A stretch of 64,000 nt of DNA from the NCBI GenBank assembly GCA_965262915.1, contig OZ253564.1, positions 896,001 through 960,000 of the forward strand. Direction: 5' to 3'. Made by a program: the position numbers and the translations under genes. The stretch is from Candidatus Spongiisociaceae bacterium. GTDB taxonomy: Bacteria > Actinomycetota > Acidimicrobiia > Spongiisociales > Spongiisociaceae. Below the pieces are notes generated by a model, which was not told the DNA's origin, made no database searches, and saw only the letters and a list, made by a program, of their open reading frames with translations. This document shows, one piece after another, positions 7,488 through 52,637 of the stretch. Numbering within the stretch: position 1 is the first letter of the stretch; each line of letters opens with the position of its first letter.

Positions 7488-9259
7488 AAGCCGACACCAT
7501 CGACCCGATCACCCTGTCGACCATCTGGAACTCCTTCCAGAGCATGGGTCGCGAGATGCGACACGTGATCGACCGCACCGCGCAGAACTACCTGATCGCC
7601 CAACTCCACGACATGGCGGCGGGTATCTGGGATGCGCAGGCCCGTACCATCGCGGTGCCCGAGGGGCCGACCTCCATGTTCCTGTCGCAGCAGTTCTCGG
7701 TCGAGTACATCCTCGACAAGTTCGGCGACGACCTCCACCCGGGGGATGTCATCATCTGCAACGACCCTTATAAGGGGTACTGCAACCACCTTCCGGACTG
7801 GGGCTTCTTCCGGCCCATCTTCTACGAGGACGAGCTGGTCTTCGTAGCCCTCACCCGCGGGCACCAGCTCGACACAGGGGGTGCCTTCCCCGGCGGCTAC
7901 TTCCCCAACGGCTACGACATCCACGCCGAAGGGTTGATGATCCCTCCGACCAAGATCTACGACCGGGGCCGGGAGCGCACCGATGTGCTCGAGCTCATCT
8001 GGAACAACGTCCGCTGGCCCGACGGCGTGAAGATCGACAACTACGCGCTGATGGCCGCGCTGCAGGTCTGCGACAACCGGGTCGTCGCCCTGCTCGACAA
8101 GTACAGCCTCCCGACGGTCAAAGAAGCCGTGGAGGAGATGCTCGACCGTATGGAGACCAACGTTCGTGCCCAGCTGGCCGAGGTTCCCGACGGCACCTAT
8201 TACGGCGAATCGGCAACCGACGACGACGGCACCGTTCTCGACGAGCAAGTGTGGGTCCGGTGCGCGGCGACCATCAAAGGCGACGAGCTCATCCTGGACT
8301 TCTCCGAAAGCGACGCGCAGCGGCGCGGCTTCGTCAACTGTGTATATTCGTCGACCTACAGCCGGGCGGTGGCAGGGAGCTTCCTGTACTTCGATCCCAC
8401 CTACTCGGAGTTCCACAACGAGGGCAGCATGCGCCCCATCACAGTGGTCGCTCCCGAAGGTTCGGTCTGCAATGCCCAGTACCCGGCGACGGTCGGCGGC
8501 TCTCCGGTGAACGTGGGGACGCAGGTGCTCGAGGCGACGGTGAGCGCTCTGTCGAAGGCCATGCCGGACAAGGCGATCGCCGGATGGGGGCGGCGTCGAG
8601 GCCACTACATCGCCGGTGTCGACCCCCGCACGGGGGAGCGGTACGTACAGACCACCACCGACGCGGACGGCGGATCGGGTGCCGTTTGGGGATACGACGG
8701 ATTCGAAGGGGCGATGGGAATGTCCGGCCTTGGTTCGATCCGGAGGGGCAGCGTCGAAGAGATCGAGATCAGGTTCCCGTGGCGGGCCGTGCGCTACCAC
8801 TACGTCCCGGACATGTCCGGCGCCGGTCGCTGGCGGGGAGGATCGGGAATGCTGTGGGAGGTGGAGAACGTCGGCGGGGATGTCGGCGTGGCCACCGGTA
8901 GCTCGGACGGGGATCTCACCCAGCCTCCGGGAGCGGGCGGTGGCGAAGACGGTCCGCTATCGAGGATGTACCTCCGCCGGGGTGATGAGACGATCCCGGC
9001 CCGAACCCACCGGATGGTGCAGGTCAGGACAGGCGAGATCCTCGGAAAGGTCAGCGGCGGCGGTGGTGGGGTAGGGGATCCCACCGAGCGTGAGCCCGAG
9101 AAGGTACTCGATGACGTAATGAACGAGTGGGTGACGCTCGAGCATGCCCGGAACGTCTACAAGGTGGTGATCGACCCTGAATCGATGACCATCGACAGAG
9201 AGCAGACCAGGCTGCTCCGGAGCTCCACCGGCGCTTCCCCAGAGAAGACCGAGACCTAG
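7484..9259 (+). CDS. Hydantoinase B/oxoprolinase family subunit
   Basis: DP.TL, NDPY...NHLPD, H..D.GG..PG, EGL.IPP, G.GR.RGG.G, GGGGG.GDP..R; ATGA-coupled to subunit A. Confidence 0.95.
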   Translation: MKADTIDPITLSTIWNSFQSMGREMRHVIDRTAQNYLIAQLHDMAAGIWDAQARTIAVPEGPTSMFLSQQFSVEYILDKFGDDLHPGDVIICNDPYKGYCNHLPDWGFFRPIFYEDELVFVALTRGHQLDTGGAFPGGYFPNGYDIHAEGLMIPPTKIYDRGRERTDVLELIWNNVRWPDGVKIDNYALMAALQVCDNRVVALLDKYSLPTVKEAVEEMLDRMETNVRAQLAEVPDGTYYGESATDDDGTVLDEQVWVRCAATIKGDELILDFSESDAQRRGFVNCVYSSTYSRAVAGSFLYFDPTYSEFHNEGSMRPITVVAPEGSVCNAQYPATVGGSPVNVGTQVLEATVSALSKAMPDKAIAGWGRRRGHYIAGVDPRTGERYVQTTTDADGGSGAVWGYDGFEGAMGMSGLGSIRRGSVEEIEIRFPWRAVRYHYVPDMSGAGRWRGGSGMLWEVENVGGDVGVATGSSDGDLTQPPGAGGGEDGPLSRMYLRRGDETIPARTHRMVQVRTGEILGKVSGGGGGVGDPTEREPEKVLDDVMNEWVTLEHARNVYKVVIDPESMTIDREQTRLLRSSTGASPEKTET

Positions 9260-40061: not shown

Positions 40062-40880
40062 TTGGCTAACCCGAAGATCGAGATCGAGCACGTCGACAAG
40101 TATTACCGGTCGACCGGCACATCATCGAAGCGCCTCGGCAGGCGGGGGAGGATGCATACGGCGGTCCAGGCGCTGCGCGACGCCAACCTGACTGTGGCCG
40201 AGGGAGAATTCGTCAGCTTGATCGGACCGAGCGGATGTGGCAAGACCACTCTCTTGAAGGTGCTGGACGGCTTGGTGCCCTACGACACAGGATCCGTGAG
40301 GGTATCGGGAAGGCCGGTAACAGGACCCGGTCGCGACCGGGCGTTCGTGTTCCAACACTTCGGCTTGTTCCCTTGGCGGACCGTGATGGGGAACGTGACG
40401 CTTCCTCTGGAGGCCGCCGGGAAGTCAAGGGCCGAGCGTGAGGAGACTGCCTGGAATTACATACGCATGGTGGGCCTCGAGAGCTTCGCCAACCATCACC
40501 CCCACGAGTTGTCGGGTGGTATGCAGCAGCGGGTCGGGATTGCCAGAGCCTTGGCGGTGGATCCGGAGATCCTGCTCATGGACGAGCCGTTCGGCGCGCT
40601 GGACGCCCAGACCCGCGAGTTGATGCAGATCGAGCTCCTCAGGATCTGGGAGAAGACTCGCAAGACGGTCGTGTTCGTCACCCACAGCGTGGACGAGGCT
40701 ATCTTCCTGTCCAGGCGGGTAGCGATCATGTCGGCCCATCCGGGGACGATCAGCGAAGTCATCGAAGTCCCCTTCGGATATCCGAGGACCGAAGGGGACC
40801 TGAAGCGGGATCCGGTTTTCGCCGACATGCGGTACGACATCTGGAATAAACTGCTGCCGGGCAAGTCCGCCACCGTCTGA
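40062..40880 (+). CDS. ABC ATP-binding protein (NitT/TauT/SsuB type)
   Basis: GPSGCGKT, FQ...L.PW, LSGGMQQRV, DEPFGALD, THSVDEA. Confidence 0.95.
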   Translation: MANPKIEIEHVDKYYRSTGTSSKRLGRRGRMHTAVQALRDANLTVAEGEFVSLIGPSGCGKTTLLKVLDGLVPYDTGSVRVSGRPVTGPGRDRAFVFQHFGLFPWRTVMGNVTLPLEAAGKSRAEREETAWNYIRMVGLESFANHHPHELSGGMQQRVGIARALAVDPEILLMDEPFGALDAQTRELMQIELLRIWEKTRKTVVFVTHSVDEAIFLSRRVAIMSAHPGTISEVIEVPFGYPRTEGDLKRDPVFADMRYDIWNKLLPGKSATV

Positions 40881-42386: not shown

Positions 42387-43436
42387 CTAGCTCCTCCTAT
42401 CGGCTTGCGGCACGTTCGACCGGGCGATCTCGGCCCGCACGATCGGTAGAACGGACCGGCTGATCTCCTCGATGGTCTCCTCGAACCGGTCGAACTGGTT
42501 ACGCACGTCGAACGTGAAATGGTCGAACCCTCGGTTGTAGTACTCCAGGACGCCGGTCGCTACGTCGGCGGCGTCACCGACTAGCACCACGCCCCGGATG
42601 TCCTCGATGGTGCGGAAGCCGCCCCCGGGTGGGGTAACCCAGTTGCGCTTGCCATCTCTCGACATCCGGTCCACGTCTACCCCGCTCCGAGCCCGTTCCC
42701 GGTCGTCGTCGAGGATCGTGCGGGGGGTGGCCGAGAGGAAGAGCCGGTCGATGCCGCCGAGGAGTTCGCGCATGTAGGCGAGCCGGGCATCGACGGTCGT
42801 CAGCGGAACCGTGCCGGCCAGCCACCCGTCCGCATGGCAGGCCGCGATCCGGGCCGCCCGCCGGGACGGTCCCCCGTACAGGATGGGTAACGGGGATTGG
42901 AGCTTGGGTTCGAGGGATGCCTTGTGGACTCGGAATATCTCCCCCTCGAAGGTCACCCCGTTCTCGGTCCACAACCGGCGGACGATGTCGATCATCTCGA
43001 CGACCGCCTGGTGTTTCCGGCGAGGGTCGATGCCAGCGGCGCGCAGCTCGCCGCCGTGGCCGGCCCCGAAGCCTGCGATGACCCGTCCCCCGGTGAGGTA
43101 GGAGAGCGTCATGTACTGCTGGGCGACCCGGATCGGGTGGCGCACCGGGATCATCACCCCGGTTCCGATGACCACCCGTTCCACGAGGGTTCCCAACCCG
43201 ACCAGGGTGGTGAACGGTTCGAGGAAGGTCATATCGGAATGGTCCTCATGGCTGTGCGGGTGCCAGAGGAGGTGATCCCGGGCCCACACCGCATCGAACC
43301 CCAGACGTTCGATGAGCTTGATGCCATCGATCAGGCGGGTACGGGAGGCGTGGGGACCGAAGTGCGGGAGCAGAATCCCGAATGTCATCCCCGTTTCGGG
43401 TCTCCGGAGGGGATGGCTGTCCAGATGCCGGCTCAC
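42387..43436 (-). CDS. LLM class flavin-dependent oxidoreductase
   Basis: GFD.VW..DH, EP...L, R.P, GR...G.G.G, P...GG.S, A...DGW; start may be 43388 (MTFG). Confidence 0.9.
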   Translation of the reverse strand: MSRHLDSHPLRRPETGMTFGILLPHFGPHASRTRLIDGIKLIERLGFDAVWARDHLLWHPHSHEDHSDMTFLEPFTTLVGLGTLVERVVIGTGVMIPVRHPIRVAQQYMTLSYLTGGRVIAGFGAGHGGELRAAGIDPRRKHQAVVEMIDIVRRLWTENGVTFEGEIFRVHKASLEPKLQSPLPILYGGPSRRAARIAACHADGWLAGTVPLTTVDARLAYMRELLGGIDRLFLSATPRTILDDDRERARSGVDVDRMSRDGKRNWVTPPGGGFRTIEDIRGVVLVGDAADVATGVLEYYNRGFDHFTFDVRNQFDRFEETIEEISRSVLPIVRAEIARSNVPQADRRS

Positions 43437-43548: not shown

Positions 43549-44565
43549 TCAGAATGCTTTGGGCCGCCAGGAGGACAACCGGGCTTCCACCGCCTTGGTG
43601 ATAGCGATCATGATCGCTCCCAGCACCATCAGCAGAAAGGCCATGGCAAAGAGCCGGTCGGTGTGGTAGGCGGCCCTCGCGTCCCGGATCACGAATCCCA
43701 ACCCCGGTACACCGATCAGGAACTCCGCCACTATCACCGCAATGAGGGCCCGCTGCACCGCAATGCGAAGACCGGAGGCGAGAAAAGGGACGGCCCCGGG
43801 CAGGAGGATCTTCCAGAACATGTGCCGGTCCCTGATGACGAGCAGCACCACGGTGGCGAACAGCAGCACCACGCCCTGTACCACGGTGAGCCATCCCGCC
43901 GCGGTGGCCAGGAATGCAACGATGAGCACGATCGCTCCCGTCCATTCGTCGACTGCGCCCTTGCCTGCCCGGAGGTTGAAGGCGTAGGAGACCTCGTTGT
44001 ATTCCTTCATCAACTCGTGCACACCCGCCGCTGTGGAGAAAGCGATCAGGACCGAGCAGGCCACCACGACGCTGGCGATCACGAATTTGGACAGGGGAAC
44101 CTGGACCCCCGCCGCTACGAAGCGGGTCCCGATACCGAACCAGATCACCATGATCGGCACGAAAGCCACCCGGGGCACCGAATAGATAGCTGCGAGGTAG
44201 GGATCGAGTGCCACCCGGAAGACCCGGTACCGGCCGATCAGGAAGCCGATCGTCACCCCGACGATGAACGAGAGAACGATGCCCACCACCAGCGCCCCCA
44301 ACGACTTGCCGAGCAGTTCCCAGAAGCTCCCCTCGATGTACGGGAGCACCTCTTCGGCTCCCAGCAGCCTCCAGAGTTCGCTGACCGTCCTGGTGGGCTG
44401 CGAATACCACTCGGGTTTGCGACCTCCGAACACCTGCCAGAAGGCCAGGAACAGCACCACGCCGATAACCTGAAAAACCCTTATCCGGTTGATCGGGAAT
44501 GAGAACCGGGTAGGTCCGCCCGGTGGTGAGGTGTCCACCAGGTCCGGCGAGCGGGCGCCGGTCAT
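43549..44565 (-). CDS. ABC permease (TauC/SsuC type) with extra hydrophobic insert
   Basis: P..A..P....WFG.G, LPGA.P....GLR, AEF, GLG; AGGAG RBS. Confidence 0.9.
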   Translation of the reverse strand: MTGARSPDLVDTSPPGGPTRFSFPINRIRVFQVIGVVLFLAFWQVFGGRKPEWYSQPTRTVSELWRLLGAEEVLPYIEGSFWELLGKSLGALVVGIVLSFIVGVTIGFLIGRYRVFRVALDPYLAAIYSVPRVAFVPIMVIWFGIGTRFVAAGVQVPLSKFVIASVVVACSVLIAFSTAAGVHELMKEYNEVSYAFNLRAGKGAVDEWTGAIVLIVAFLATAAGWLTVVQGVVLLFATVVLLVIRDRHMFWKILLPGAVPFLASGLRIAVQRALIAVIVAEFLIGVPGLGFVIRDARAAYHTDRLFAMAFLLMVLGAIMIAITKAVEARLSSWRPKAF

Positions 44566-45407
44566 ATCGACTCCTTGATGCTCCACGGGGTGACCCAGCG
44601 CTCGAGCAGCCGCAGACCGATGTTGATGGAGACTCCCACCGCCATGACGGTCAGCATCGCGGCGAAGGTCGTGTCCATCCGGAACTCGTTGGTCGCGTTG
44701 CCTATCAGGCCGCCGATGCCCTTCGCCTCCAGGAAGAACCCGGCCAGCACCACTCCGACCATACCGTGGAGGAGGCCCAGCCGTAGACCGGTGATGATGT
44801 AGGGAGCGGTTGCCGGTGCCACGATCTTGGTGAGCATCATGGCTTCGGGGATGGAATAGGACCTTGCCACGTCCACGTATTCGGCGTTGGTCACCTTTAT
44901 GCCGTCCCTAACGGTGAAGAAGACCTCGAAGAAGCTGAAGAGGATCACGACCAGCACCTTGGCGTTGAACTGGTAGCCGAGCCAGAGGGCGATGATCGGA
45001 AGCAGGGCAATCTTGGGCGTCATGAAGACCCCCACGAAGACCGGCTCGACGGTGTTGTCGATCGACCGGTAGCGTCCGAGGAGAAACCCCAGCAGGATAC
45101 CGGCCACGGCCGAAATGGCCAGGGCGGTGAACATGATCGCCAGGTCGGCTCGCCAGGCTTTCCACAACTCGCCGTTGACGGTCATCTCCCGGAGGGCTTC
45201 CCATGTCCTGGTCGCCGATGCGAAAGTGGCGGTGTGGGTGCGCCTTCCGAAGACCTCCCAGCCGGTGAGGATGACCGCCAGGGTGAGTACCCGTATCGTC
45301 CAACTCGACTGGAAGAGGTCCAGTGCACGCCCGAGAGGACCAGCGACTCCGGAAGCCAGGTAAGTAGAACCCCGCTCCCGGGCGGTCAGTGTCTTGACTG
45401 CGGCCAT
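44562..45407 (-). CDS. ABC permease (TauC/SsuC type)
   Basis: PKIALLP....W.G, ARSY, P...PYI.TGLRLG, G.G; GGAG RBS before ATG 45407. Confidence 0.92.
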   Translation of the reverse strand: MAAVKTLTARERGSTYLASGVAGPLGRALDLFQSSWTIRVLTLAVILTGWEVFGRRTHTATFASATRTWEALREMTVNGELWKAWRADLAIMFTALAISAVAGILLGFLLGRYRSIDNTVEPVFVGVFMTPKIALLPIIALWLGYQFNAKVLVVILFSFFEVFFTVRDGIKVTNAEYVDVARSYSIPEAMMLTKIVAPATAPYIITGLRLGLLHGMVGVVLAGFFLEAKGIGGLIGNATNEFRMDTTFAAMLTVMAVGVSINIGLRLLERWVTPWSIKESI

Positions 45408-45552
45408 ATGCGTTTGCTCCCCGTCCGAACAATCCGGCCAGGAGAATGCCGACCATCCGATCGTCGCCCCAGTCTTCCAACCGCGACATCGGGTGTCCAG
45501 CACCCTCCGGGAACCTTAGCGCCAGGTCCTCGCAAACGTTCGGTTACCCGGC

Positions 45553-45604
45553 GGCCTGCAGGCCTGCCAAGCCCCCTGAGGGGAGCTAGCAGGCCCGCAG
45601 GTCC
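45553..45604 (-). terminator. Strong GC hairpin after the SBP gene (attenuator or mRNA-stabilising stem)
   Basis: Long imperfect inverted repeat with a 3-nt loop between SBP stop and first permease; no U-tract. Confidence 0.55.
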
Positions 45605-45628
45605 GTTCCTATGTTCCCTCCGTCCGGC

Positions 45629-47776
45629 CTATGCCGAGCCGAGGATTTCGAGTGCTTTGTCCTGGAACTCGAAGGTGACGAGTTCTTCGACGGTGTACTC
45701 ACGGTCGACCGCTTCGAATGAGAAGGAGGTGTCCAGGGTGGTCTGCATGAGGTCGTAGTCGAGCGATCCGTTTACGGGCCACATGTCGAGCTCATCGATG
45801 AGGTTGTCGTAGTCAAGCGAAGCAGCTTCGGGGGTGAGCCGTTCGTTCACGGACATGGCGTAATCGATCCACCGCTGCTTGTCGTCCTGCGCCCAGCGGG
45901 CCGACTTCAGCGAAGCGATGTTGAACGCCAGCGCGATGTCGGGGTTGGCCTCCACCCAGTCCCGCTCGGCATACCAGATCGAGGAGATCTGGGGGTTGGA
46001 CTCCCAGCCGGCGCAAAGCATGTTGTAGGCGCCTTCGCCTTCGTTGAGGGTGAGCTGGGTAAGACGCCAAGTTGCTGAGATTCCCCCGACGACCTGCCCC
46101 GACGTGATCGCCTGGGTCGCTTCACCGGTGTGCGCCAGGCGCACCAGCTGCACGTCGTCGACGGTCATTCCCACGTCAGCCAAACACTTCTGGAGGGTCT
46201 GGCCGGTGATCTGGTTCAGGCTCTGGGTCGCTGCCACGGGCTGGCCGCGCAACTCCTCCATCGACGATATCGGCGCCTTGGCGGCGATGATGAACGAGTT
46301 CTTCTGGTCGTCACCACCGAACGCTACGAAGTCCGAACCCGCCGACACCGCATTGGCCATACCGGCCAAAGACAGCTGACCGACCGCTACTTCACCGGCG
46401 ATAGTCGCCGCTACCAGCGGATCCGAGTCCAGAAGCCGGAACTCAACATCGAGACCGAAATCATCCCGCAGGAAGTCCATCGTCCGGAACGCCCCTGTCA
46501 ACGAAGCGTTCGGGAACCCCGAACTACCGACCACCACCGACTGGCCCTCGATACGAGACCGGATATCGGCGATCGTCGCTTCCGCATCCATCATCTCATC
46601 CTCAGGCATTGCGCCCATGGATCCGACATCAGGGTTGCGTTCGGCGACGCCGAGGATTTCGACTGCTTTGTCCTGGAACTCGAAGGTGACGAGTTCTTCG
46701 ACGGTGTACTCACGGTCGACCGCTTCGAATGAGAAGGAGGTGTCCAGGGTGGTCTGCATGAGGTCGTAGTCGAGCGATCCGTTTACGGGCCACATGTCGA
46801 GCTCACCTAGGAGGTTGTCGTAGTCAAGCGAAGCAGCTTCGGGGGTGAGCCGTTCGTTCACGGACATGGCGTAATCGATCCACCGCTGCTTGTCGTCCTG
46901 CGCCCAGCGGGCCGACTTCAGCGAAGCGATGTTGAACGCCAGCGCGATGTCGGGGTTGGCCTCCACCCAGTCCCGCTCGGCATACCAGATCGAGGAGATC
47001 TGGGGGTTGGACTCCCAGCCGGCGCAAAGCATGTTGTAGGCGCCTTCGCCTTCGTTGAGGGTGAGCTGGGTAAGACGCCAAGTTGCTGAGATTCCCCCGA
47101 CGACCTGCCCCGACGTGATCGCCTGGGTCGCTTCACCGGTGTGCGCCAGGCGCACCAGCTGCACGTCGTCGACGGTCATTCCCACGTCAGCCAAACACTT
47201 CTGGAGGGTCTGGCCGGTGATCTGGTTCAGGCTCTGGGTCGCTGCCACGGGCTGGCCGCGCAACTCCTCCATCGACGATATCGGCGCCTTGGCGGCGATG
47301 ATGAACGAGTTCTTCTGGTCGTCACCACCGAACGCTACGAAGTCCGAACCCGCCGACACCGCATTGGCCATACCGGCCAAAGACAGCTGACCGACCGCTA
47401 CTTCACCGGCGATAGTCGCCGCTACCAGCGGATCCGAGTCCAGAAGCCGGAACTCAACATCGAGACCGAAATCATCCCGCAGGAAGTCCATCGTCCGGAA
47501 CGCCCCTGTCAACGAAGCGTTCGGGAACCCCGAACTACCGACCACCACCGACTGGCCCTCGATACGAGACCGGATATCGGCGATCGTCGCTTCCGCATCC
47601 ATCATCTCATCCTCAGGCGGGGCGGTCTCGGTGGGCGTCTCCGTGGGTGCCGTTTCCTGGGTAGCCTGCGTTGTCACGGTTGCTTGGCTGGTCGCGGCGG
47701 GTTCGTCGTCTCCGCCGCAGGCCACGACGAGCAATGCGAACCCGAGTAGCAACGCCAACAGCCTCTTGTGTTTCAT
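45629..47776 (-). CDS. ABC substrate-binding lipoprotein (NMT1/SsuA-like) with two near-identical binding domains
   Basis: VVAC lipobox, Thr/Pro linker, about 323-aa unit repeated twice; GGAGG RBS. Confidence 0.9.
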   Translation of the reverse strand: MKHKRLLALLLGFALLVVACGGDDEPAATSQATVTTQATQETAPTETPTETAPPEDEMMDAEATIADIRSRIEGQSVVVGSSGFPNASLTGAFRTMDFLRDDFGLDVEFRLLDSDPLVAATIAGEVAVGQLSLAGMANAVSAGSDFVAFGGDDQKNSFIIAAKAPISSMEELRGQPVAATQSLNQITGQTLQKCLADVGMTVDDVQLVRLAHTGEATQAITSGQVVGGISATWRLTQLTLNEGEGAYNMLCAGWESNPQISSIWYAERDWVEANPDIALAFNIASLKSARWAQDDKQRWIDYAMSVNERLTPEAASLDYDNLLGELDMWPVNGSLDYDLMQTTLDTSFSFEAVDREYTVEELVTFEFQDKAVEILGVAERNPDVGSMGAMPEDEMMDAEATIADIRSRIEGQSVVVGSSGFPNASLTGAFRTMDFLRDDFGLDVEFRLLDSDPLVAATIAGEVAVGQLSLAGMANAVSAGSDFVAFGGDDQKNSFIIAAKAPISSMEELRGQPVAATQSLNQITGQTLQKCLADVGMTVDDVQLVRLAHTGEATQAITSGQVVGGISATWRLTQLTLNEGEGAYNMLCAGWESNPQISSIWYAERDWVEANPDIALAFNIASLKSARWAQDDKQRWIDYAMSVNERLTPEAASLDYDNLIDELDMWPVNGSLDYDLMQTTLDTSFSFEAVDREYTVEELVTFEFQDKALEILGSA
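45638..47618. repeat. 970-bp direct repeat (45638-46607 and 46649-47618), period 1011 bp
   Basis: Only 4 nucleotide differences found by eye (AVE/ALE, LLGE/LIDE); 41-bp unique spacer. Confidence 0.95.
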
Positions 47777-48030: not shown

Positions 48031-49011
48031 CTATTGTCGTAGCCGGGTCCTACCAAATGCGGGGATGACCTCTGAGCCGAGTTGCTCGATACCGTCTTCG
48101 AAGGCGTCCATCCTCTCTCGCAGATCGAGAACCACCTCATCCACCCCTCGGCCCTCCAATTCATGGAGGTCTGTGATCACATCGTCGGCATTCCCGGCGA
48201 TCAGCGCCCCGCGCAGGTCATCCGCCGAGTCGAAGGGCCCATCCGGGCGCCAGGCCGGCTTCCGACGCGACTCCTCGAGAATCCCCTCGACGTTGACTTT
48301 GGCCAGGGCGCGCTCCCGGTTCCGGTCGAGGGAGACCAACGGGACGATGGCGACCCGCATCTTCTTGTCGGTGGCTTCGGCCTCTCCCCGGAGGCGTGCG
48401 GACAATCGATCGAAGACCCGCAGAGGGCACCGGCCGGGGAACCATCCGTCGGCGAAACGGACGGCCCGCCGTATTGCCGCCAGGCTGGATCCGCAATAGA
48501 GCAGCTCCAAGTCTCTCGGTGGGGCCGGGTCCAGCGTGAGATCATCGAATCCGATGAGTGACCCTCGATGGGATGCATGGGGCTGGGACGTGGCCCGCAG
48601 AACCGTCACCATCTCCTCGAACAGGGCCAGGCGATCGTCGATCGAGAGTCCGGCCAGCCGGAAGGCGTTGGGCTGACCGCCCAGCCCGACGCCGAGCACC
48701 AGCCTCCCGCGAGCCAGGTAGGCGAGCGACCCGACCATCTGGGAAAGCACCACGGGCGGGCGTATGGGAACGAGGGTCGCCATCCCCACGGTGAGGTCGG
48801 TGGTTGCCGCCACGGCGCTCATGGCTATGAAAGGATCGACGAAGTGGTGGCTGGGGTTCTCGAACGACACGCCGCCGGCGAAACCCAACTGATCCCGGAA
48901 GTAGACGCTCGAGAATCCGAGTTCCTGCAGGCGCGGGCCGATCCCGAACACCCGATCCCAGGTCGAGTGCGGGCCGAAGTGCGGTATCAGGAGACCGAAG
49001 CGGAGGCTCAT
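48031..49011 (-). CDS. LLM class flavin-dependent oxidoreductase, paralog 2
   Basis: FGLLIPHFGPH N-terminus like 42387..43436, DP, GRL.LGVG.G, ADGW; start 49011 or 49041. Confidence 0.9.
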   Translation of the reverse strand: MSLRFGLLIPHFGPHSTWDRVFGIGPRLQELGFSSVYFRDQLGFAGGVSFENPSHHFVDPFIAMSAVAATTDLTVGMATLVPIRPPVVLSQMVGSLAYLARGRLVLGVGLGGQPNAFRLAGLSIDDRLALFEEMVTVLRATSQPHASHRGSLIGFDDLTLDPAPPRDLELLYCGSSLAAIRRAVRFADGWFPGRCPLRVFDRLSARLRGEAEATDKKMRVAIVPLVSLDRNRERALAKVNVEGILEESRRKPAWRPDGPFDSADDLRGALIAGNADDVITDLHELEGRGVDEVVLDLRERMDAFEDGIEQLGSEVIPAFGRTRLRQ

Positions 49012-49052
49012 TGCTGTCGGATGTTCATCGGTACCGGACATCGTATACGATC

Positions 49053-50237
49053 ATGCCCGTGCCTCCCGGATCTGACGGACCCGTCCGGGTAGCCGCGGTT
49101 CAGGCGGCCCCGGTATTTCTCGACCGGGCTGCGTCCTTGCAGAAGGCTTGCAGTCTGATAAGCGAGGCCGCGGCTGCCGGCGCCCGGCTGATCGCCTTCG
49201 GTGAGAACTTCCTCCCGGGACATCCGATCTGGTTCCACGCGCTGCCGCCCACCGCCGGTCGTTCGAGGGAACTCGCCACCGCCATGGTGGAGAACGCTCT
49301 GACCGTCCCGGGCCCGGAGAGCGACCTTCTGTGCGAGGCCGCTCGCAGTGCCGGAGCGATGCTGGTCATCGGATTCGTCGAACGTCCCGACCCTCGGGTG
49401 AGCGTGGTGTTCGACAGCCAGCTGGTCGTGGCGCCGGACGGCGAGCTGCTCGGCGTGAGGAGAAAGCTGGTGCCCGCCGTGGGCGAGCGGGTCTTCTTCC
49501 ATCCGGGGGGAGAGGAGTCGATCCGGATATTCGATTCGCCGTGGGGACCGGTGAGCGTGCTGGCGGGAGGGGAGAACTCCAATCCGCTCCTCACGTATGC
49601 GATGCGCGGTCTGGGCGCCCGGATCCATGTGGCTCTCTGGCCGCCTCATTTCCATGCCCCCGGCGTGATGCACAACGTCGTGTCGATCACGGGACGGGCT
49701 ATCGCGTACCAGAACACGGCCCACGTGCTCTCCGTGGCAGCTTCATCCGACCTAGCAGCCGTGGCTCGCGTGGAGGCCGGAGCCGATCACCGGGGCAACC
49801 TCGAAGCCATGACCGAGGAGCCGGGGTCCATGATCTACGCACCTCGCGGCACCGTTCTGGCCGGCCCGCAGCGCGGCGAAGGCATCCTGTATGCGGACAT
49901 CGACCCGAATGCCGGAACCTGGGCGCAGCTCGTGAACCGTCAATACGATCGTCCCGATCTCCTGCGGCTCGCCTGGGGTCGGGAAGATGAGCCGCAGGCG
50001 GAGAGCCCACGTGTCGGGGCGGGCACGGACCCCGGGGACTCTTGCACCGGGCAGGATTCTTGGTCGGGGCGTGCCCGGCGACTGATACAGGACCGGTTCG
50101 GGGACGCGCTCGAACCTGCTGATACCGAGGCCCTGGTTCCCTACGTGGTCCAGATCCTCCGTAGGACGGAGAAGCTTGCGCAGCTTGTCCCGGCCTCGGT
50201 CGATCCCCGCACTGCCATGTATGCGGGTGGGCGGTGA
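49053..50237 (+). CDS. Nitrilase-superfamily protein lacking the catalytic Cys, with C-terminal extension
   Basis: VAAVQAAP, F.E.FLPG.P.W, RRKL.P...ER, LAGGEN (Cys replaced by Gly), EGILYADID, Y.RPD. Confidence 0.88.
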   Translation: MPVPPGSDGPVRVAAVQAAPVFLDRAASLQKACSLISEAAAAGARLIAFGENFLPGHPIWFHALPPTAGRSRELATAMVENALTVPGPESDLLCEAARSAGAMLVIGFVERPDPRVSVVFDSQLVVAPDGELLGVRRKLVPAVGERVFFHPGGEESIRIFDSPWGPVSVLAGGENSNPLLTYAMRGLGARIHVALWPPHFHAPGVMHNVVSITGRAIAYQNTAHVLSVAASSDLAAVARVEAGADHRGNLEAMTEEPGSMIYAPRGTVLAGPQRGEGILYADIDPNAGTWAQLVNRQYDRPDLLRLAWGREDEPQAESPRVGAGTDPGDSCTGQDSWSGRARRLIQDRFGDALEPADTEALVPYVVQILRRTEKLAQLVPASVDPRTAMYAGGR

Positions 50238-51691
50238 GCGACAACGTAGCCTTTGTCCCGATCAGTGATTTGGCGCCCCGAGTCTCGTCCCGGGAGGTCT
50301 CCCCGGTCGAGTTGGTCTCCGTGGCCCTCGAACGCATCGACACCCTCGACGCCCGGCTGCGCTCCTACATCACTGTGTTCGAAAAGGAGGCCATGGCCGC
50401 GGCCCGAGCGGCCGAAGATGCGATAGCGAGCGGTAACTATCTAGGTCCGCTCCACGGTATTCCGGTCGCGGTCAAGGACAACATCGCCGTTGCGGGATTT
50501 CCCACCACCAACGGGTCGGTTTTCTGGGAAGACCACACGACGGACTTCGATGCCGAGGTCGTGATCCGTCTCCGCCGAGCCGGGGCCATCATCCTCGGGA
50601 AGAACAACATGCACGAATGGGGTATGGGAGGTACTTGCAAAGGTATGTACTTCGGCACTGTGCGTAACCCCTGGGATCCGTCGCGCATCCCCGGCGGTTC
50701 GAGTGGCGGCTCGGCGGCGGCGGTAAGCGCCGGGATGGCCTGGGCTGCCGTCGGTACCGACGGATGGGGGTCGATCCGGACCCCGGCGTCCTACTGCGGG
50801 GTGGTCGGCTTGATGCCCACCCATGGGCTCGCCAGCCGTTTCGGGGAGTTGCCACCGACCAGCTCGTGGCATCACACCATCGGCCCGATCGCCCGCACCG
50901 TTCGGGACGTTGCAACCCTGCTCGACGCGATGGCCGGACATGACCCGAAGGATCCGACATCTATCCACTGCGGATTCGAGGGCTCCTACCGTGACGGTCT
51001 CGAATCCGGGGTCAGCGGTATGAGGGTGGGTGTGCCCACGTCGTTCTTCTTCGACGACGCGCTGCCCGAGGTGGAGGGCGCGGTTCGGAAAGCCGCCCGG
51101 ACCTTCGAGGATCTGGGTGCGGTGCTGGTTGAGGTTGACCTGTCGGCCTCCTACAACACGCCTCTGGCTTTGGCGGCCGCCCAGCACGAGTCGCAGTCCG
51201 TCCTTCTCCCATACGCCCTCGGCCATCCGGATGGTTTTGCCACCCCCGAGATCCGCTACCGCATCCTGGCCGGGGAGTTCGTCTCCGCGGCCGATCACCG
51301 GAGAGGCATGCAGGTGCGCAACGAGATGCGCACCAAGGTTATGAAAGTGTTCGAGACCGCAGATGTCGTGCTGACACCCTGCAATTCGACGGTGGCTTTC
51401 CCCATCGATGCCAGACAGGTGAGGATCGGTGACGGAACCCACGTCGATCTGGGCGATCCCGGCGGACAGAGCAGGCTCACCACCAGACTCACCCTGCCCT
51501 GGAACCTGGTCGGGGTTCCGGCCATCTCCATACCTTCCGGGAGCCACCTCGACGGCCTGCCGGTGGGGCTGCAGCTGGCCGCCGGCCCGCTGCGGGAGCC
51601 CCAGCTGCTGAGGGTCGCGGCGGCCTACGAAGCCGCGGCCGGCGGTTACCAGGTACCGGGTCTAGTGAACGCCGGTGGGCTTCCGGAGTAG
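50234..51691 (+). CDS. Amidase signature family protein (GatA/AtzE-like)
   Basis: GPLHGIP.AVKD, GK.N.HE, GGSSGGSAAAV, GTD..GSIR.PA, GLP.GLQ; GTGA coupling. Confidence 0.95.
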   Translation: MSDNVAFVPISDLAPRVSSREVSPVELVSVALERIDTLDARLRSYITVFEKEAMAAARAAEDAIASGNYLGPLHGIPVAVKDNIAVAGFPTTNGSVFWEDHTTDFDAEVVIRLRRAGAIILGKNNMHEWGMGGTCKGMYFGTVRNPWDPSRIPGGSSGGSAAAVSAGMAWAAVGTDGWGSIRTPASYCGVVGLMPTHGLASRFGELPPTSSWHHTIGPIARTVRDVATLLDAMAGHDPKDPTSIHCGFEGSYRDGLESGVSGMRVGVPTSFFFDDALPEVEGAVRKAARTFEDLGAVLVEVDLSASYNTPLALAAAQHESQSVLLPYALGHPDGFATPEIRYRILAGEFVSAADHRRGMQVRNEMRTKVMKVFETADVVLTPCNSTVAFPIDARQVRIGDGTHVDLGDPGGQSRLTTRLTLPWNLVGVPAISIPSGSHLDGLPVGLQLAAGPLREPQLLRVAAAYEAAAGGYQVPGLVNAGGLPE

Positions 51692-51695
51692 TTGG

Positions 51696-52637
51696 GTGGC
51701 CGCTCCCGTCCCGCTCCGAGTGTGTCTGTTCAATGGCGCCTCCTCGCTGCCGATCCGCATCGCCGACCATCTCGGGTTGCTGTCGGCTGCCGGCTTCGCG
51801 ACCGAACTGCACCTGACAAAGGGCTCGAAGCAGCTGATGGAGGGTCTGCTGGACGGCCGGTATGACGTGGTGCATGCCGCCCCGGACAACTTCATCGAGT
51901 GGCGAGACCGGACCGGAGCGGACATCGTGGCCTGGATCGGAGGTACCAGCGGACCGCTGCAGCTCATCGGCGCGCCCGAACTGTTGAAAGTCGATGACCT
52001 GGCCGGACACGAGATAGCGGTGGACTCGCCGACATCAGGGTTCGTCTCGGTGTTGAGAAAGATCCTCCGTGCCGGCGGTTTGGCAACCGAGGAGGTCACC
52101 TTCGTACAACGGGGAAGCACGCAGATCCGCTACGAGGTGCTGATGTCCGGTGAGACCTCTGCCACGATGCTGGCCCTGCCCTGGTCTGCCCAGGCTCTCG
52201 AGGCCGGTTTCCGCCTTCTGGGGGACAGAGATCAGGTTCTTCCCGGGATGCAGGGATCGTGCGGAGCGTCGCTCGGAACGTGGCTGGACGCGCAGCCCAA
52301 CCTGGCGGATGCTTATCTGAAGGCGTTGTGCGCCGCCATCACCTGGCTCAACCACTCCGACAATCTCGATGAGGCCAACCGATACATCTCCGAGACCTAC
52401 GACACGAGCGACGCACTCGCCGATACGATCCGGCGCTCCATCATGGATCCCCGGACCGGGTGGTCACCTTCGGCGTTCATCGATCCCGCCGGGATCGACA
52501 TCGTGTGCCAACTACGCGCCGAGAACGGTCGACCTCCTGCCGGGCCGCCCACTTCCTACTACACGCTGGACCCGTACCGCCGGGTGTTCGGATTCGGACT
52601 GACGGAGTGCATAGAACGGCGTGTCTCAGCCGTCTAG
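51696..52637 (+). CDS. NMT1/THI5/SsuA-like binding-protein fold, no signal peptide seen
   Basis: A...G.....G, G.YD......DN, DL.G..IAVD...SG, G.T..R...L..G...AT.L..P. Confidence 0.8.
   Translation: MAAPVPLRVCLFNGASSLPIRIADHLGLLSAAGFATELHLTKGSKQLMEGLLDGRYDVVHAAPDNFIEWRDRTGADIVAWIGGTSGPLQLIGAPELLKVDDLAGHEIAVDSPTSGFVSVLRKILRAGGLATEEVTFVQRGSTQIRYEVLMSGETSATMLALPWSAQALEAGFRLLGDRDQVLPGMQGSCGASLGTWLDAQPNLADAYLKALCAAITWLNHSDNLDEANRYISETYDTSDALADTIRRSIMDPRTGWSPSAFIDPAGIDIVCQLRAENGRPPAGPPTSYYTLDPYRRVFGFGLTECIERRVSAV

Follow-up and report, generated by a model that had tools for sequence, protein, structure and literature searches.

Nitrilases work with a catalytic set of Glu-Lys-Glu-Cys, in which the Cys is the nucleophile, and in the branch-1 nitrilases C-terminal extensions are involved in oligomerisation. 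For amidases of the GatA type, the pairing with a small subunit of the GatC type is a known principle. A second pair of this kind is formed by AtzG and AtzE: the AtzG-like proteins are regarded as derivatives of GatC, AtzE stays insoluble unless AtzG is present, and the AtzG-like gene lies directly upstream of the amidase gene, in clusters with ATP-binding cassette (ABC) transporters and monooxygenases for nitrogen compounds (PMC6219798). Here we describe a gene of Candidatus Spongiisociaceae bacterium (assembly GCA_965262915.1, contig OZ253564.1, positions 896,001–960,000 of the forward strand) in which a nitrilase-fold domain lacking the nucleophile Cys, named NitG here, is joined to a short helical tail and is followed directly by an amidase gene. 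The whole stretch of 64,000 nucleotides is referred to as the window, and its coordinates are used throughout. The locus probably represents a conserved Cys-less nitrilase whose GatC-like tail clamps onto the neighbouring amidase, a variant of the GatC-GatA and AtzG-AtzE pairing. An original prediction, made from the letters of the window, had proposed a Cys-less nitrilase fused to a possible GatC/AtzG-like tail and coupled to an amidase.

The nitrilase fold and its missing nucleophile

The NitG-tail gene (49053..50237, + strand) is an open reading frame (ORF) of 394 amino acids (aa), and residues 12–290 of its product match the Pfam family CN_hydrolase (PF00795) with an E-value of 6e-34. The best NCBIfam match is the Nit6803-family nitrilase, with 127.7 bits against a cut-off of 502.6. 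The AlphaFold2 model of the whole protein, calculated with 39 homologs, has a mean predicted local distance difference test (pLDDT) value of 83.4 and a confident nitrilase fold up to about residue 290; the alpha-beta-beta-alpha domain defined by AlphaFold2 and Foldseek comprises residues 11–290 (49083..49922, + strand). In the Foldseek comparison with the PDB, the top matches are the nitrilases 6zby_A and 8uxu_A (E ~4e-26, target-normalised template modelling (TM) scores of 0.84–0.86), and the first matches as a group are nitrilases and cyanide dihydratases (target-normalised TM 0.84–0.89).

In the HMMER alignments to 6zby_A and 8uxu_A, three catalytic-type residues of NitG fall on the corresponding residues of the solved enzymes: Glu51 (in FGE, codon at 49203..49205, aligned with the Glu of the nitrilase 'PE' motif), Lys138 (in RRKL, 49464..49466) and Glu145 (in GER, 49485..49487), all on the + strand. 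Gly172 of the sequence VLAGGEN falls on the Cys of CCAEH or NCWEH in these nitrilases, and its codon, GGA (49566..49568, + strand), is two changes away from TGT or TGC. The fold, the Glu, the Lys and the second Glu of the nitrilase superfamily are thus all present, whereas the nucleophilic Cys of the C-[WA]-E motif is absent. The NitG-tail protein is a structural member of the superfamily, not a working nitrilase of known mechanism. Because the nucleophile Cys is replaced by Gly, the thioimidate and acyl-enzyme chemistry of nitrilases cannot take place in the NitG domain. We know of no member of the nitrilase superfamily that works without the Cys, and a literature search, with subscription journals outside its coverage, returned nothing on inactive or pseudo-nitrilases nor on a link between nitrilases and AtzG.

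Conservation of the Cys-less domain

A word-indexed search of 5.8 billion proteins gave 617 matches at E ≤ 1e-5 among 8000 scored candidates, and the best 120 of these were examined. Within the 120, Gly at the nucleophile site is combined with the tail in 88 proteins and Ala with the tail in 4, while Cys with the tail is found in none; 2 further tailed proteins have an unread motif. The proteins without the tail carry Cys (14), Gly (8), Ala (1) or an unread motif (3), and the eight Gly forms among them consist of 2 split forms, 1 fragment, 2 proteins with a degenerate tail and 3 with no tail. Altogether the Cys site is occupied by Gly or Ala in 101 of the 120, from many independent assemblies. 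In the alignment A1 (39 sequences, down to 40% identity) the site shows 30 Gly, 1 Ala and 8 Cys. Lys138 and Glu145 are invariant in all 39 sequences, as is Glu174, and Glu51 is nearly so.

A quick maximum-likelihood tree was calculated for 112 domain sequences and one outgroup from the genome of origin, after 8 of the 120 had been dropped (shorter than 300 aa or with an unread motif). A single branch with a Shimodaira–Hasegawa-like approximate likelihood ratio test (SH-aLRT) value of 100 and a length of 1.41 changes per column parts the 14 Cys forms from the 98 Gly/Ala forms, among which Ala arises in three places. The ratio of nonsynonymous to synonymous substitution rates (dN/dS, mean of NG86 (Nei–Gojobori) values between the window and five fused loci of Acidimicrobiia) is 0.117 for the domain, 0.81 for linker residues 311–339 and 0.227 for the tail. 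Purifying selection on domain and tail, with a nearly neutral linker in between, marks both parts as functional and the linker as a free tether. The loss of the Cys, with the Glu-Lys-Glu residues kept, is a conserved family trait under selection and not an error. The family is spread over Acidimicrobiia (including sponge-associated genomes), Limnocylindrales and other Chloroflexota, Solirubrobacterales, and one metagenome-assembled genome (MAG) of Gemmatimonadota.

The nearest relatives are the Cys-type paralogs of Chloroflexota (motif LMCGENSNPLL), with 40–45% identity. They share the GEN-NPLL context with NitG but keep the Cys, and the conserved tail is present in 0 of the 14 found in the best 120.

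A scan of one genome per species gave 21 loci, 13 of the Gly type and 8 of the Cys type, whose neighbours were determined by tblastn with the proteins of the window. The Gly-type loci belong to Acidimicrobiia (including a sponge-associated 'Spongiisociaceae' MAG), Limnocylindrales and one Solirubrobacterales genome; the Cys-type loci are all from Chloroflexota. Twelve of the 13 Gly-type loci have the amidase gene directly after the nitrilase-like gene. In the remaining one, L012, the contig of 2 kb carries no amidase; a binding-protein homolog directly follows there, and the tail is degenerate after its first helix. For the Cys-type loci L014–L021 no amidase match is found within 5 kb, unlike for the Gly type. 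The fused form is seen in nine of the 13 Gly-type loci (L001–L004, L008–L011 and L013), which belong to two phyla; in these nine the stop codon overlaps the amidase start by 4–8 nucleotides.

The original prediction had read the nucleophile position as LAGGEN with the Glu and Lys kept, and had considered a single-base error unlikely for a GGA codon. Both readings hold, the first in the alignments to the solved nitrilases and the second in the DNA, the homolog counts and the purifying selection. It had also proposed checking whether homologs conserve the Gly and the tail, as they do in the 88 proteins above, and had named closest homologs with a Cys and a separate small gene as the finding that would overturn it. 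The closest homologs keep Gly, not Cys; a separate small gene does exist, in three related genomes, so that the fused and the split forms are both natural.

The tail as a separable module

The linker between the two parts (residues 291–332; 49923..50048, + strand) is of low complexity and disordered, with pLDDT values below 50 at residues 291–297 and 310–332. The tail (residues 333–394; 50049..50234, + strand) consists of two helices (residues 333–352 and 355–377 in the AlphaFold2 model) and an extended end with a DPR motif. Its gene ends in a GTGA overlap with the amidase gene (50234..50237, + strand), in which the TGA stop (50235–50237) overlaps the GTG start of the amidase (50234–50236).

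In L005, L006 and L007 the reading frame breaks within the linker. The nitrilase-like ORF stops just past its domain, and a second ORF of 73–79 aa in another frame encodes the tail; the GTG start of this second ORF overlaps the upstream TGA (GTGA) in the junction [AC]TGTGA. These genomes are two complete chromosomes and one short-read assembly. Between L005/L007 and L006 the synonymous divergence (dS) is ~1 and dN/dS is 0.13–0.16 for the domain and 0.32–0.33 for the small ORF, and the split state is therefore old, with both parts maintained.

A HMMER profile of 20 tails, searched against 1.84 billion cluster representatives, retrieved 28 proteins at E ≤ 1e-3, and 16 of these also passed E ≤ 1e-10. 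Lengths lie between 60 and 201 aa in 26 cases, mostly at 60–108 aa; the other two are the fused form P0008 and a protein of 461 aa with low-complexity-like matches only. Complete stand-alone homologs have 63–74 aa (e.g. P0254, P0256, P0258, P0259 and P0262–P0266), and the small homologs match no Pfam family. The metagenomic protein P0240 (560 aa) presents a further arrangement: the small protein (residues 1–63, E 2.4e-17 to the profile described below), a Pro-rich linker and an amidase in one chain.

A profile of 16 stand-alone small proteins (A4) was searched against genome samples and matched 12 of 401 genomes of Chloroflexota and 3 of 401 of Actinomycetota, the latter including the genome of origin and one real gatC (the third was left unused). 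With the NitG-fused loci and the one unused locus left out, the small ORF adjoins an amidase match in 10 of 15 loci, and the five without one include the three weakest matches. Among the six strong matches (E ≤ 1e-8), four from Chloroflexota (L072, L074, L075 and L076) abut or overlap a downstream amidase 49–50% identical to that of the window, with no nitrilase-like match within 1.5 kb. The other two, L073 and L083, have no amidase within 1.5 kb; the match of L073 (1495–1839, − strand) lies between an ORF read by eye as isochorismatase-like and a binding-protein gene, and that of L083 is at 1498–2064 (− strand). The small module may serve other hydrolases too. In general, it is found free, fused to an amidase and fused to a Cys-less nitrilase, almost always beside this amidase subfamily.

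Relationship of the tail to GatC and AtzG

The hhalign comparison of A4 with 28 GatC proteins of Actinomycetota gave a score of 27.5 over 55 columns (P 1.6e-4), the aligned part beginning at the N-terminus in either family. A4 aligns to GatC columns 11–65 of 111, with GatC residues 1–52 in register, and the 'L-S/T-x-x-E' turn and the 'D-P / P-T' end are paired. Reversed alignments scored 9.7 and 10.4, and column shuffles (100 per partner) had a mean of ~10, a standard deviation of ~2 and a maximum of 18.2, so that 0 of 200 reached 27.5. For comparison, the score of 17 AtzG-like proteins on this GatC alignment is 29.6. The A4 profile also matches a genuine gatC beside gatA in the genome G240 (E 7.5e-5). 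The model of a small protein of 65 aa (pLDDT 82.5, helices 5–16 and 22–44), compared by Foldseek with 350,542 PDB chains, has GatC at ranks 1, 2, 3, 5 and 8, and AtzG (6c62_C) at rank 6 with a TM score of 0.55.

With respect to GatC, the tail is outside the family model, and the comparisons point, with moderate confidence, to remote homology with the GatA-binding N-terminal two-helix part; the C-terminal half of GatC is missing, and the tail ends ~15 residues past the DPR motif. With respect to AtzG, neither the family model nor the profile recognises it. In the genome of origin PF02686 matches only the real gatC and one weak unrelated site, and the Pfam AtzG-like family has 0 matches at E ≤ 1, compared with 1 of 301 genomes in the phylum sample. 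On our reading, the tail would have branched off independently from the GatA-binding N-terminal half of GatC, as a third line beside GatC itself and AtzG, and it belongs to neither Pfam family.

The amidase and the predicted complex

The amidase-signature enzyme (50234..51691, + strand; 485 aa) matches the Pfam family Amidase (PF01425) with an E-value of 4e-117. Its best PDB match is GatA (2df4_A, 6e-71), and AtzE (6c62_A) follows with 3e-53. On the NCBIfam models it scores 325.2 bits for TIGR00132 (gatA; cut-off 481.1), 298.4 for NF006631 (461) and 290.3 for TIGR02715 (425.75), the scores on the AtzE-family models being 290–298 bits and below the cut-offs. The enzyme thus scores under every NCBIfam equivalog cut-off and represents a distinct amidase subfamily. 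The gatC-gatA genes of the same genome lie elsewhere (C1:1564968–1566613). Lys81, Ser156 and Ser180, which we take to be the Ser-cisSer-Lys triad of the amidase signature family, are invariant in 36 amidase orthologs, and the amidase should therefore be active as a working hydrolase.

The complex of tail and amidase was predicted with an alignment of 36 amidase rows and one of 20 tail rows. The three runs scored 0.72, 0.73 and 0.67 (median 0.72), against 0.01 for the best control; 58 of 80 solved complexes attain the mark of 0.72, compared with 2 of 110 mismatched pairs, counts that are only rough with custom alignments. At least 94% of the contacts are common to the runs, and the partner pLDDT is at least 79. 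The predicted interface is formed by amidase residues 308–364 and 409, including the nearly invariant Arg343, Leu345, Ala346, Phe349 and Asp354, and on the side of the tail it includes the conserved Arg9, Leu14, Leu22, Pro24, Val26 and Leu36 (tail numbering). The prediction supports binding of the tail to the amidase.

With these results the original proposal for the tail is partly borne out. The low-complexity linker and the helical tail overlapping the amidase start are seen in the pLDDT profile, the two predicted helices and the GTGA overlap. The proposal of a small partner encoded next to the amidase agrees with the tail homologs of relatives, which are small genes directly upstream of amidases, and the proposed tethering to the amidase agrees with the complex prediction. 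The designation GatC/AtzG-like stands in part: the ~60-aa two-helix module, the in-register GatC alignment and the GatC and AtzG fold matches favour it, while the tail lies outside both Pfam families and has no AtzG-like profile match.

Gene neighbourhood

Upstream and divergent from the NitG-tail gene lies a gene for a luciferase-like (LLM, F420-type) oxidoreductase (48031..49041, − strand; Pfam and NCBIfam scans). Its best model is an F420-dependent subfamily of the Rv2161c type, with a score under the cut-off. The ABC transporter genes (43549..47776, − strand) comprise two permeases (43549–44586 and 44562–45503) and an NMT1-type binding protein of 715 aa (45629–47776); they are flanked by the LLM gene and by a second LLM-class oxidoreductase (42387–43436, − strand). 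An ABC ATPase is found at 40062–40880. The assignments rest on ORFs and family scans. Eleven of the 13 Gly-type loci (L001–L010 and L013) have an LLM ortholog (50–87% identity) upstream in opposite orientation, and in the same loci the NMT1-type binding protein and the permeases are syntenic, down to 50% identity and in two phyla.

The NMT1-type gene is a tandem duplication, with two near-identical halves of ~337 aa in one ORF; identical side ORFs at 45813–46070 and 46824–47081 give a period of 1011 bp. The binding-protein gene is likewise doubled in L002–L005 and L007, and it is single in L001, L006 and L013.

Downstream, an NMT1/SsuA-like binding-protein homolog (51675..52637, + strand; Pfam NMT1_2) starts inside the amidase gene and overlaps its end. 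It has no obvious signal peptide by eye, and its product may be a cytoplasmic partner or an enzyme, not a part of a transporter. Six of the 13 Gly-type loci have such a homolog after the amidase. Like NitG, the Cys-type paralogs adjoin an NMT1-like homolog, which is downstream of them in L010, L017 and L021. The idea that this homolog could be a DszB-like desulfinase found no support in the PDB search, which gave one weak match (3qsl, a putative exported protein); the LLM oxidoreductase has no PDB match at E ≤ 1e-10. The neighbours of the Cys-type paralogs are a class II aldolase, a major facilitator superfamily (MFS) transporter, a zinc-dependent alcohol dehydrogenase (Zn-ADH), a short-chain dehydrogenase/reductase (SDR) and an isochorismatase-like protein. 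Neither these neighbours nor the PDB matches of the binding protein and the LLM enzyme point to a substrate compound.

In the Limnocylindrales locus L010 a Cys paralog (7761–8627; CGEN motif, 45% identical) stands in the same gene row after the amidase, and in L009/L014 the Cys and Gly types are ~9 kb apart on one contig (DASTSC010000008.1). The live and the 'dead' forms of the nitrilase are thus kept together at these loci. The genome of origin (5,055,038 bases) has an unusually rich set of C-N hydrolases, with 15 CN_hydrolase matches and more than 15 amidase-signature paralogs detectable with the amidase of the window.

Proposed working of the pair and alternative explanations

According to the preferred reading, the NitG-tail gene encodes two modules, which a flexible linker connects. 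The one at the C-terminus, of ~60 aa, would act as a GatC-like small subunit, placed by the model on the helical surface of the amidase (residues ~308–364). By analogy with GatC on GatA and AtzG on AtzE, its binding would probably stabilise the amidase. The N-terminal module has a true nitrilase fold with Gly in place of the nucleophile, and strong selection maintains its Glu-Lys-Glu pocket. Through the fusion and the overlap of stop and start codons, both proteins would be made in equal amounts and the Cys-less domain would be held beside the amidase, and the hydrolysis would be carried out by the amidase with its retained Ser-cisSer-Lys triad. For the Cys-less domain we favour a non-thiol accessory or ligand-binding role over catalysis. 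The conserved cluster with LLM oxidoreductases and an NMT1-type ABC transporter suggests that the pair probably belongs to the breakdown of an imported nitrogen-containing compound.

Several observations weigh against this picture. In the split loci L005–L007 the Cys-less domain stays under purifying selection while untethered (dN/dS 0.13–0.23), so the tether is not essential to the function of the domain. The original prediction had proposed that the tethering serves to channel an unstable intermediate; a linker that evolves almost without constraint and split forms that remain viable speak against a channel that is rigid and depends on the fusion. A Glu-Lys-Glu set kept so strictly is equally compatible with catalysis and with ligand binding in the pocket. 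With respect to the tail, the Foldseek E-values of the 65-aa model are all weak (0.5–2.5), and the hhalign probability between A4 and GatC is 50%, falling to 30% (score 23.8) for the fused tails alone. The tail of the window, 20 tails and 23 small homologs gave no match to Pfam GatC (PF02686) or AtzG-like (PF13318) within E thresholds of 1–10, the NCBIfam scan of the tail returned no family, and the tail profiles A2 and A4 retrieved no GatC or AtzG chain from the PDB sequences at E ≤ 10, their matches being chance-level helical proteins (e.g. 2eo2, E 0.06, and 6dkm, 0.085). Against 17 actinobacterial AtzG-like proteins A4 scores 10.8, which is at noise level, and the nearest named ESM Atlas cluster, with 13% of members carrying PF13318 and a score of 0.86, is a lead only. 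The complex score may reflect likeness to solved GatCA and AtzEG structures.

The same pocket could also belong to an enzyme. The Cys-less domain might act without a thiol, for example through direct attack by water, through hydration or by decarboxylating an N-carboxy product made by the amidase; the pair would perform consecutive steps, with the tail still serving as adaptor. We consider this less likely than the preferred reading. It agrees with the (near-)invariance of Glu51, Lys138, Glu145 and Glu174 in the 39 sequences, with the low dN/dS of the domain and its persistence in the untethered split forms, and with the long stem before the Gly/Ala clade, as expected after a change of function. 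A precedent is the product of AtzE, which is handed to a second, non-homologous enzyme, AtzH, whereby a dead-end breakdown is avoided (PMC6219798). The replacement of Gly by Ala in three sublineages speaks against a thiol-free enzyme, as it indicates that no functional side chain is needed at the site. So does the lack of any Cys-less working nitrilase known to us, or of literature on inactive ones within our search. A bolder, rather improbable version would be a transamidosome-like machine, in which the Cys-less domain stands in for GatB and adjoins a GatC-GatA-type module. Ammonia, or an unstable N-carboxy or amide product, would leave the amidase and be captured and converted in the Glu-Lys-Glu pocket by thiol-free chemistry. 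Such a GatB-like role would give the nitrilase superfamily a catalytic mode not seen in it before and would define a class of coupled C-N hydrolase that is likewise new.

The remaining explanations detach the domain from the amidase or question the gene itself. NitG could be the inactive half of a hetero-oligomer with the Cys paralog of the CGEN type, the link to the amidase being secondary; both types do occur in one gene row (L010) and on one contig (L009/L014), and both types are encoded, one protein each, on several equally long metagenome contigs (e.g. P0063/P0111, P0078/P0115 and P0095/P0113). An obligatory heteromer is unlikely, however, because the genome of origin, of 5.05 Mb, has no Cys-type ortholog (the next best nitrilase is ~30% identical); the Acidimicrobiia loci L001–L007 and L013 also lack a second nitrilase-like match within 5 kb, and the idea as a whole appears very improbable. 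Slightly less probable still is that the tail serves self-assembly into oligomers or filaments, as the usual C-terminal extension of branch-1 nitrilases, with the amidase a mere operon partner, although the best structural matches of NitG are filament-forming nitrilases and cyanide dihydratases. An ordinary extension of this kind is contradicted by the 63–74-aa stand-alone homologs directly upstream of amidases with no nitrilase-like gene nearby and by the fusion to an amidase in P0240; the tail is moreover absent from the Cys-type paralogs, it is degenerate in the only Gly-type locus without an amidase, and the prediction of its complex with the amidase passes the controls. The chance that the gene is an artefact, whether through a misread Cys codon, through decay to a pseudogene or through a lost stop codon that joins two genes, is negligible. 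The separate ORFs of three related genomes and the metagenome-type assembly with an estimated contamination of 5.87% could be taken in its favour, whereas the two changes between GGA and a Cys codon, the predominance of Gly and Ala across independent assemblies, the fused loci in two phyla and the purifying selection on domain and tail (dN/dS 0.12 and 0.23) contradict it.

Significance

No earlier description appears to exist of the small-protein family, of its fusion to a nitrilase fold or of the conserved clade of Cys-less nitrilases. NitG provides a sizeable nitrilase-fold family without the universal nucleophile, in which the rest of the active site is under strong selection, and is therefore a test case for what a 'dead' pocket does. 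The small module would be a third offshoot of GatC beside GatC itself and AtzG, with no Pfam family and with three natural arrangements. Its occurrence suggests that many catabolic 'GatA-like' amidases have unnoticed obligate small partners, which matters for soluble expression. The automatic names 'aliphatic nitrilase' and 'GatA' for the two genes are very likely wrong.

Comparison with known systems

NitG shares its fold with the branch-1 nitrilases and cyanide dihydratases (NitA of P. fluorescens EBC191, 6zby; 8uxu; Nit6803, 3wuy) at ~30% identity and TM scores of 0.84–0.89, and the Glu, the Lys and the second Glu are conserved in both. It differs from them by Gly172 in place of the Cys and Gly173 in place of the following Trp or Ala, by its NCBIfam score far under the nitrilase cut-off and by the GatC-like tail.

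In comparison with GatC-GatA of the GatCAB amidotransferase (transamidosome), only the N-terminal half of GatC is present here, without a match to Pfam GatC, and the module is fused to a nitrilase-fold domain, with the own gatC-gatA pair placed elsewhere in the genome. None of the cluster genes that were scanned is GatB-like, no dedicated search for GatB having been made. The arrangement itself is the same, with the gene of a small helical protein directly in front of that of an amidase-signature enzyme; the profiles align in register, GatC chains are the best fold matches of the module and the amidase is nearest to GatA.

AtzG is, to our knowledge, not found as a fusion to another domain. The tail is outside the Pfam AtzG-like family, its profile comparison with AtzG-like proteins stays at noise level, and AtzH, AtzD and AtzF, which were not searched for, were not seen in the cluster. 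Common to this locus and to AtzG-AtzE (1-carboxybiuret amidohydrolase) would be a non-catalytic partner of ~65 aa with a catabolic amidase derived from GatCA, as predicted here. The two systems also agree in the position of the partner gene upstream of the amidase, in the fold match of the module to 6c62_C and in the scores of the amidase on the AtzE-family models.

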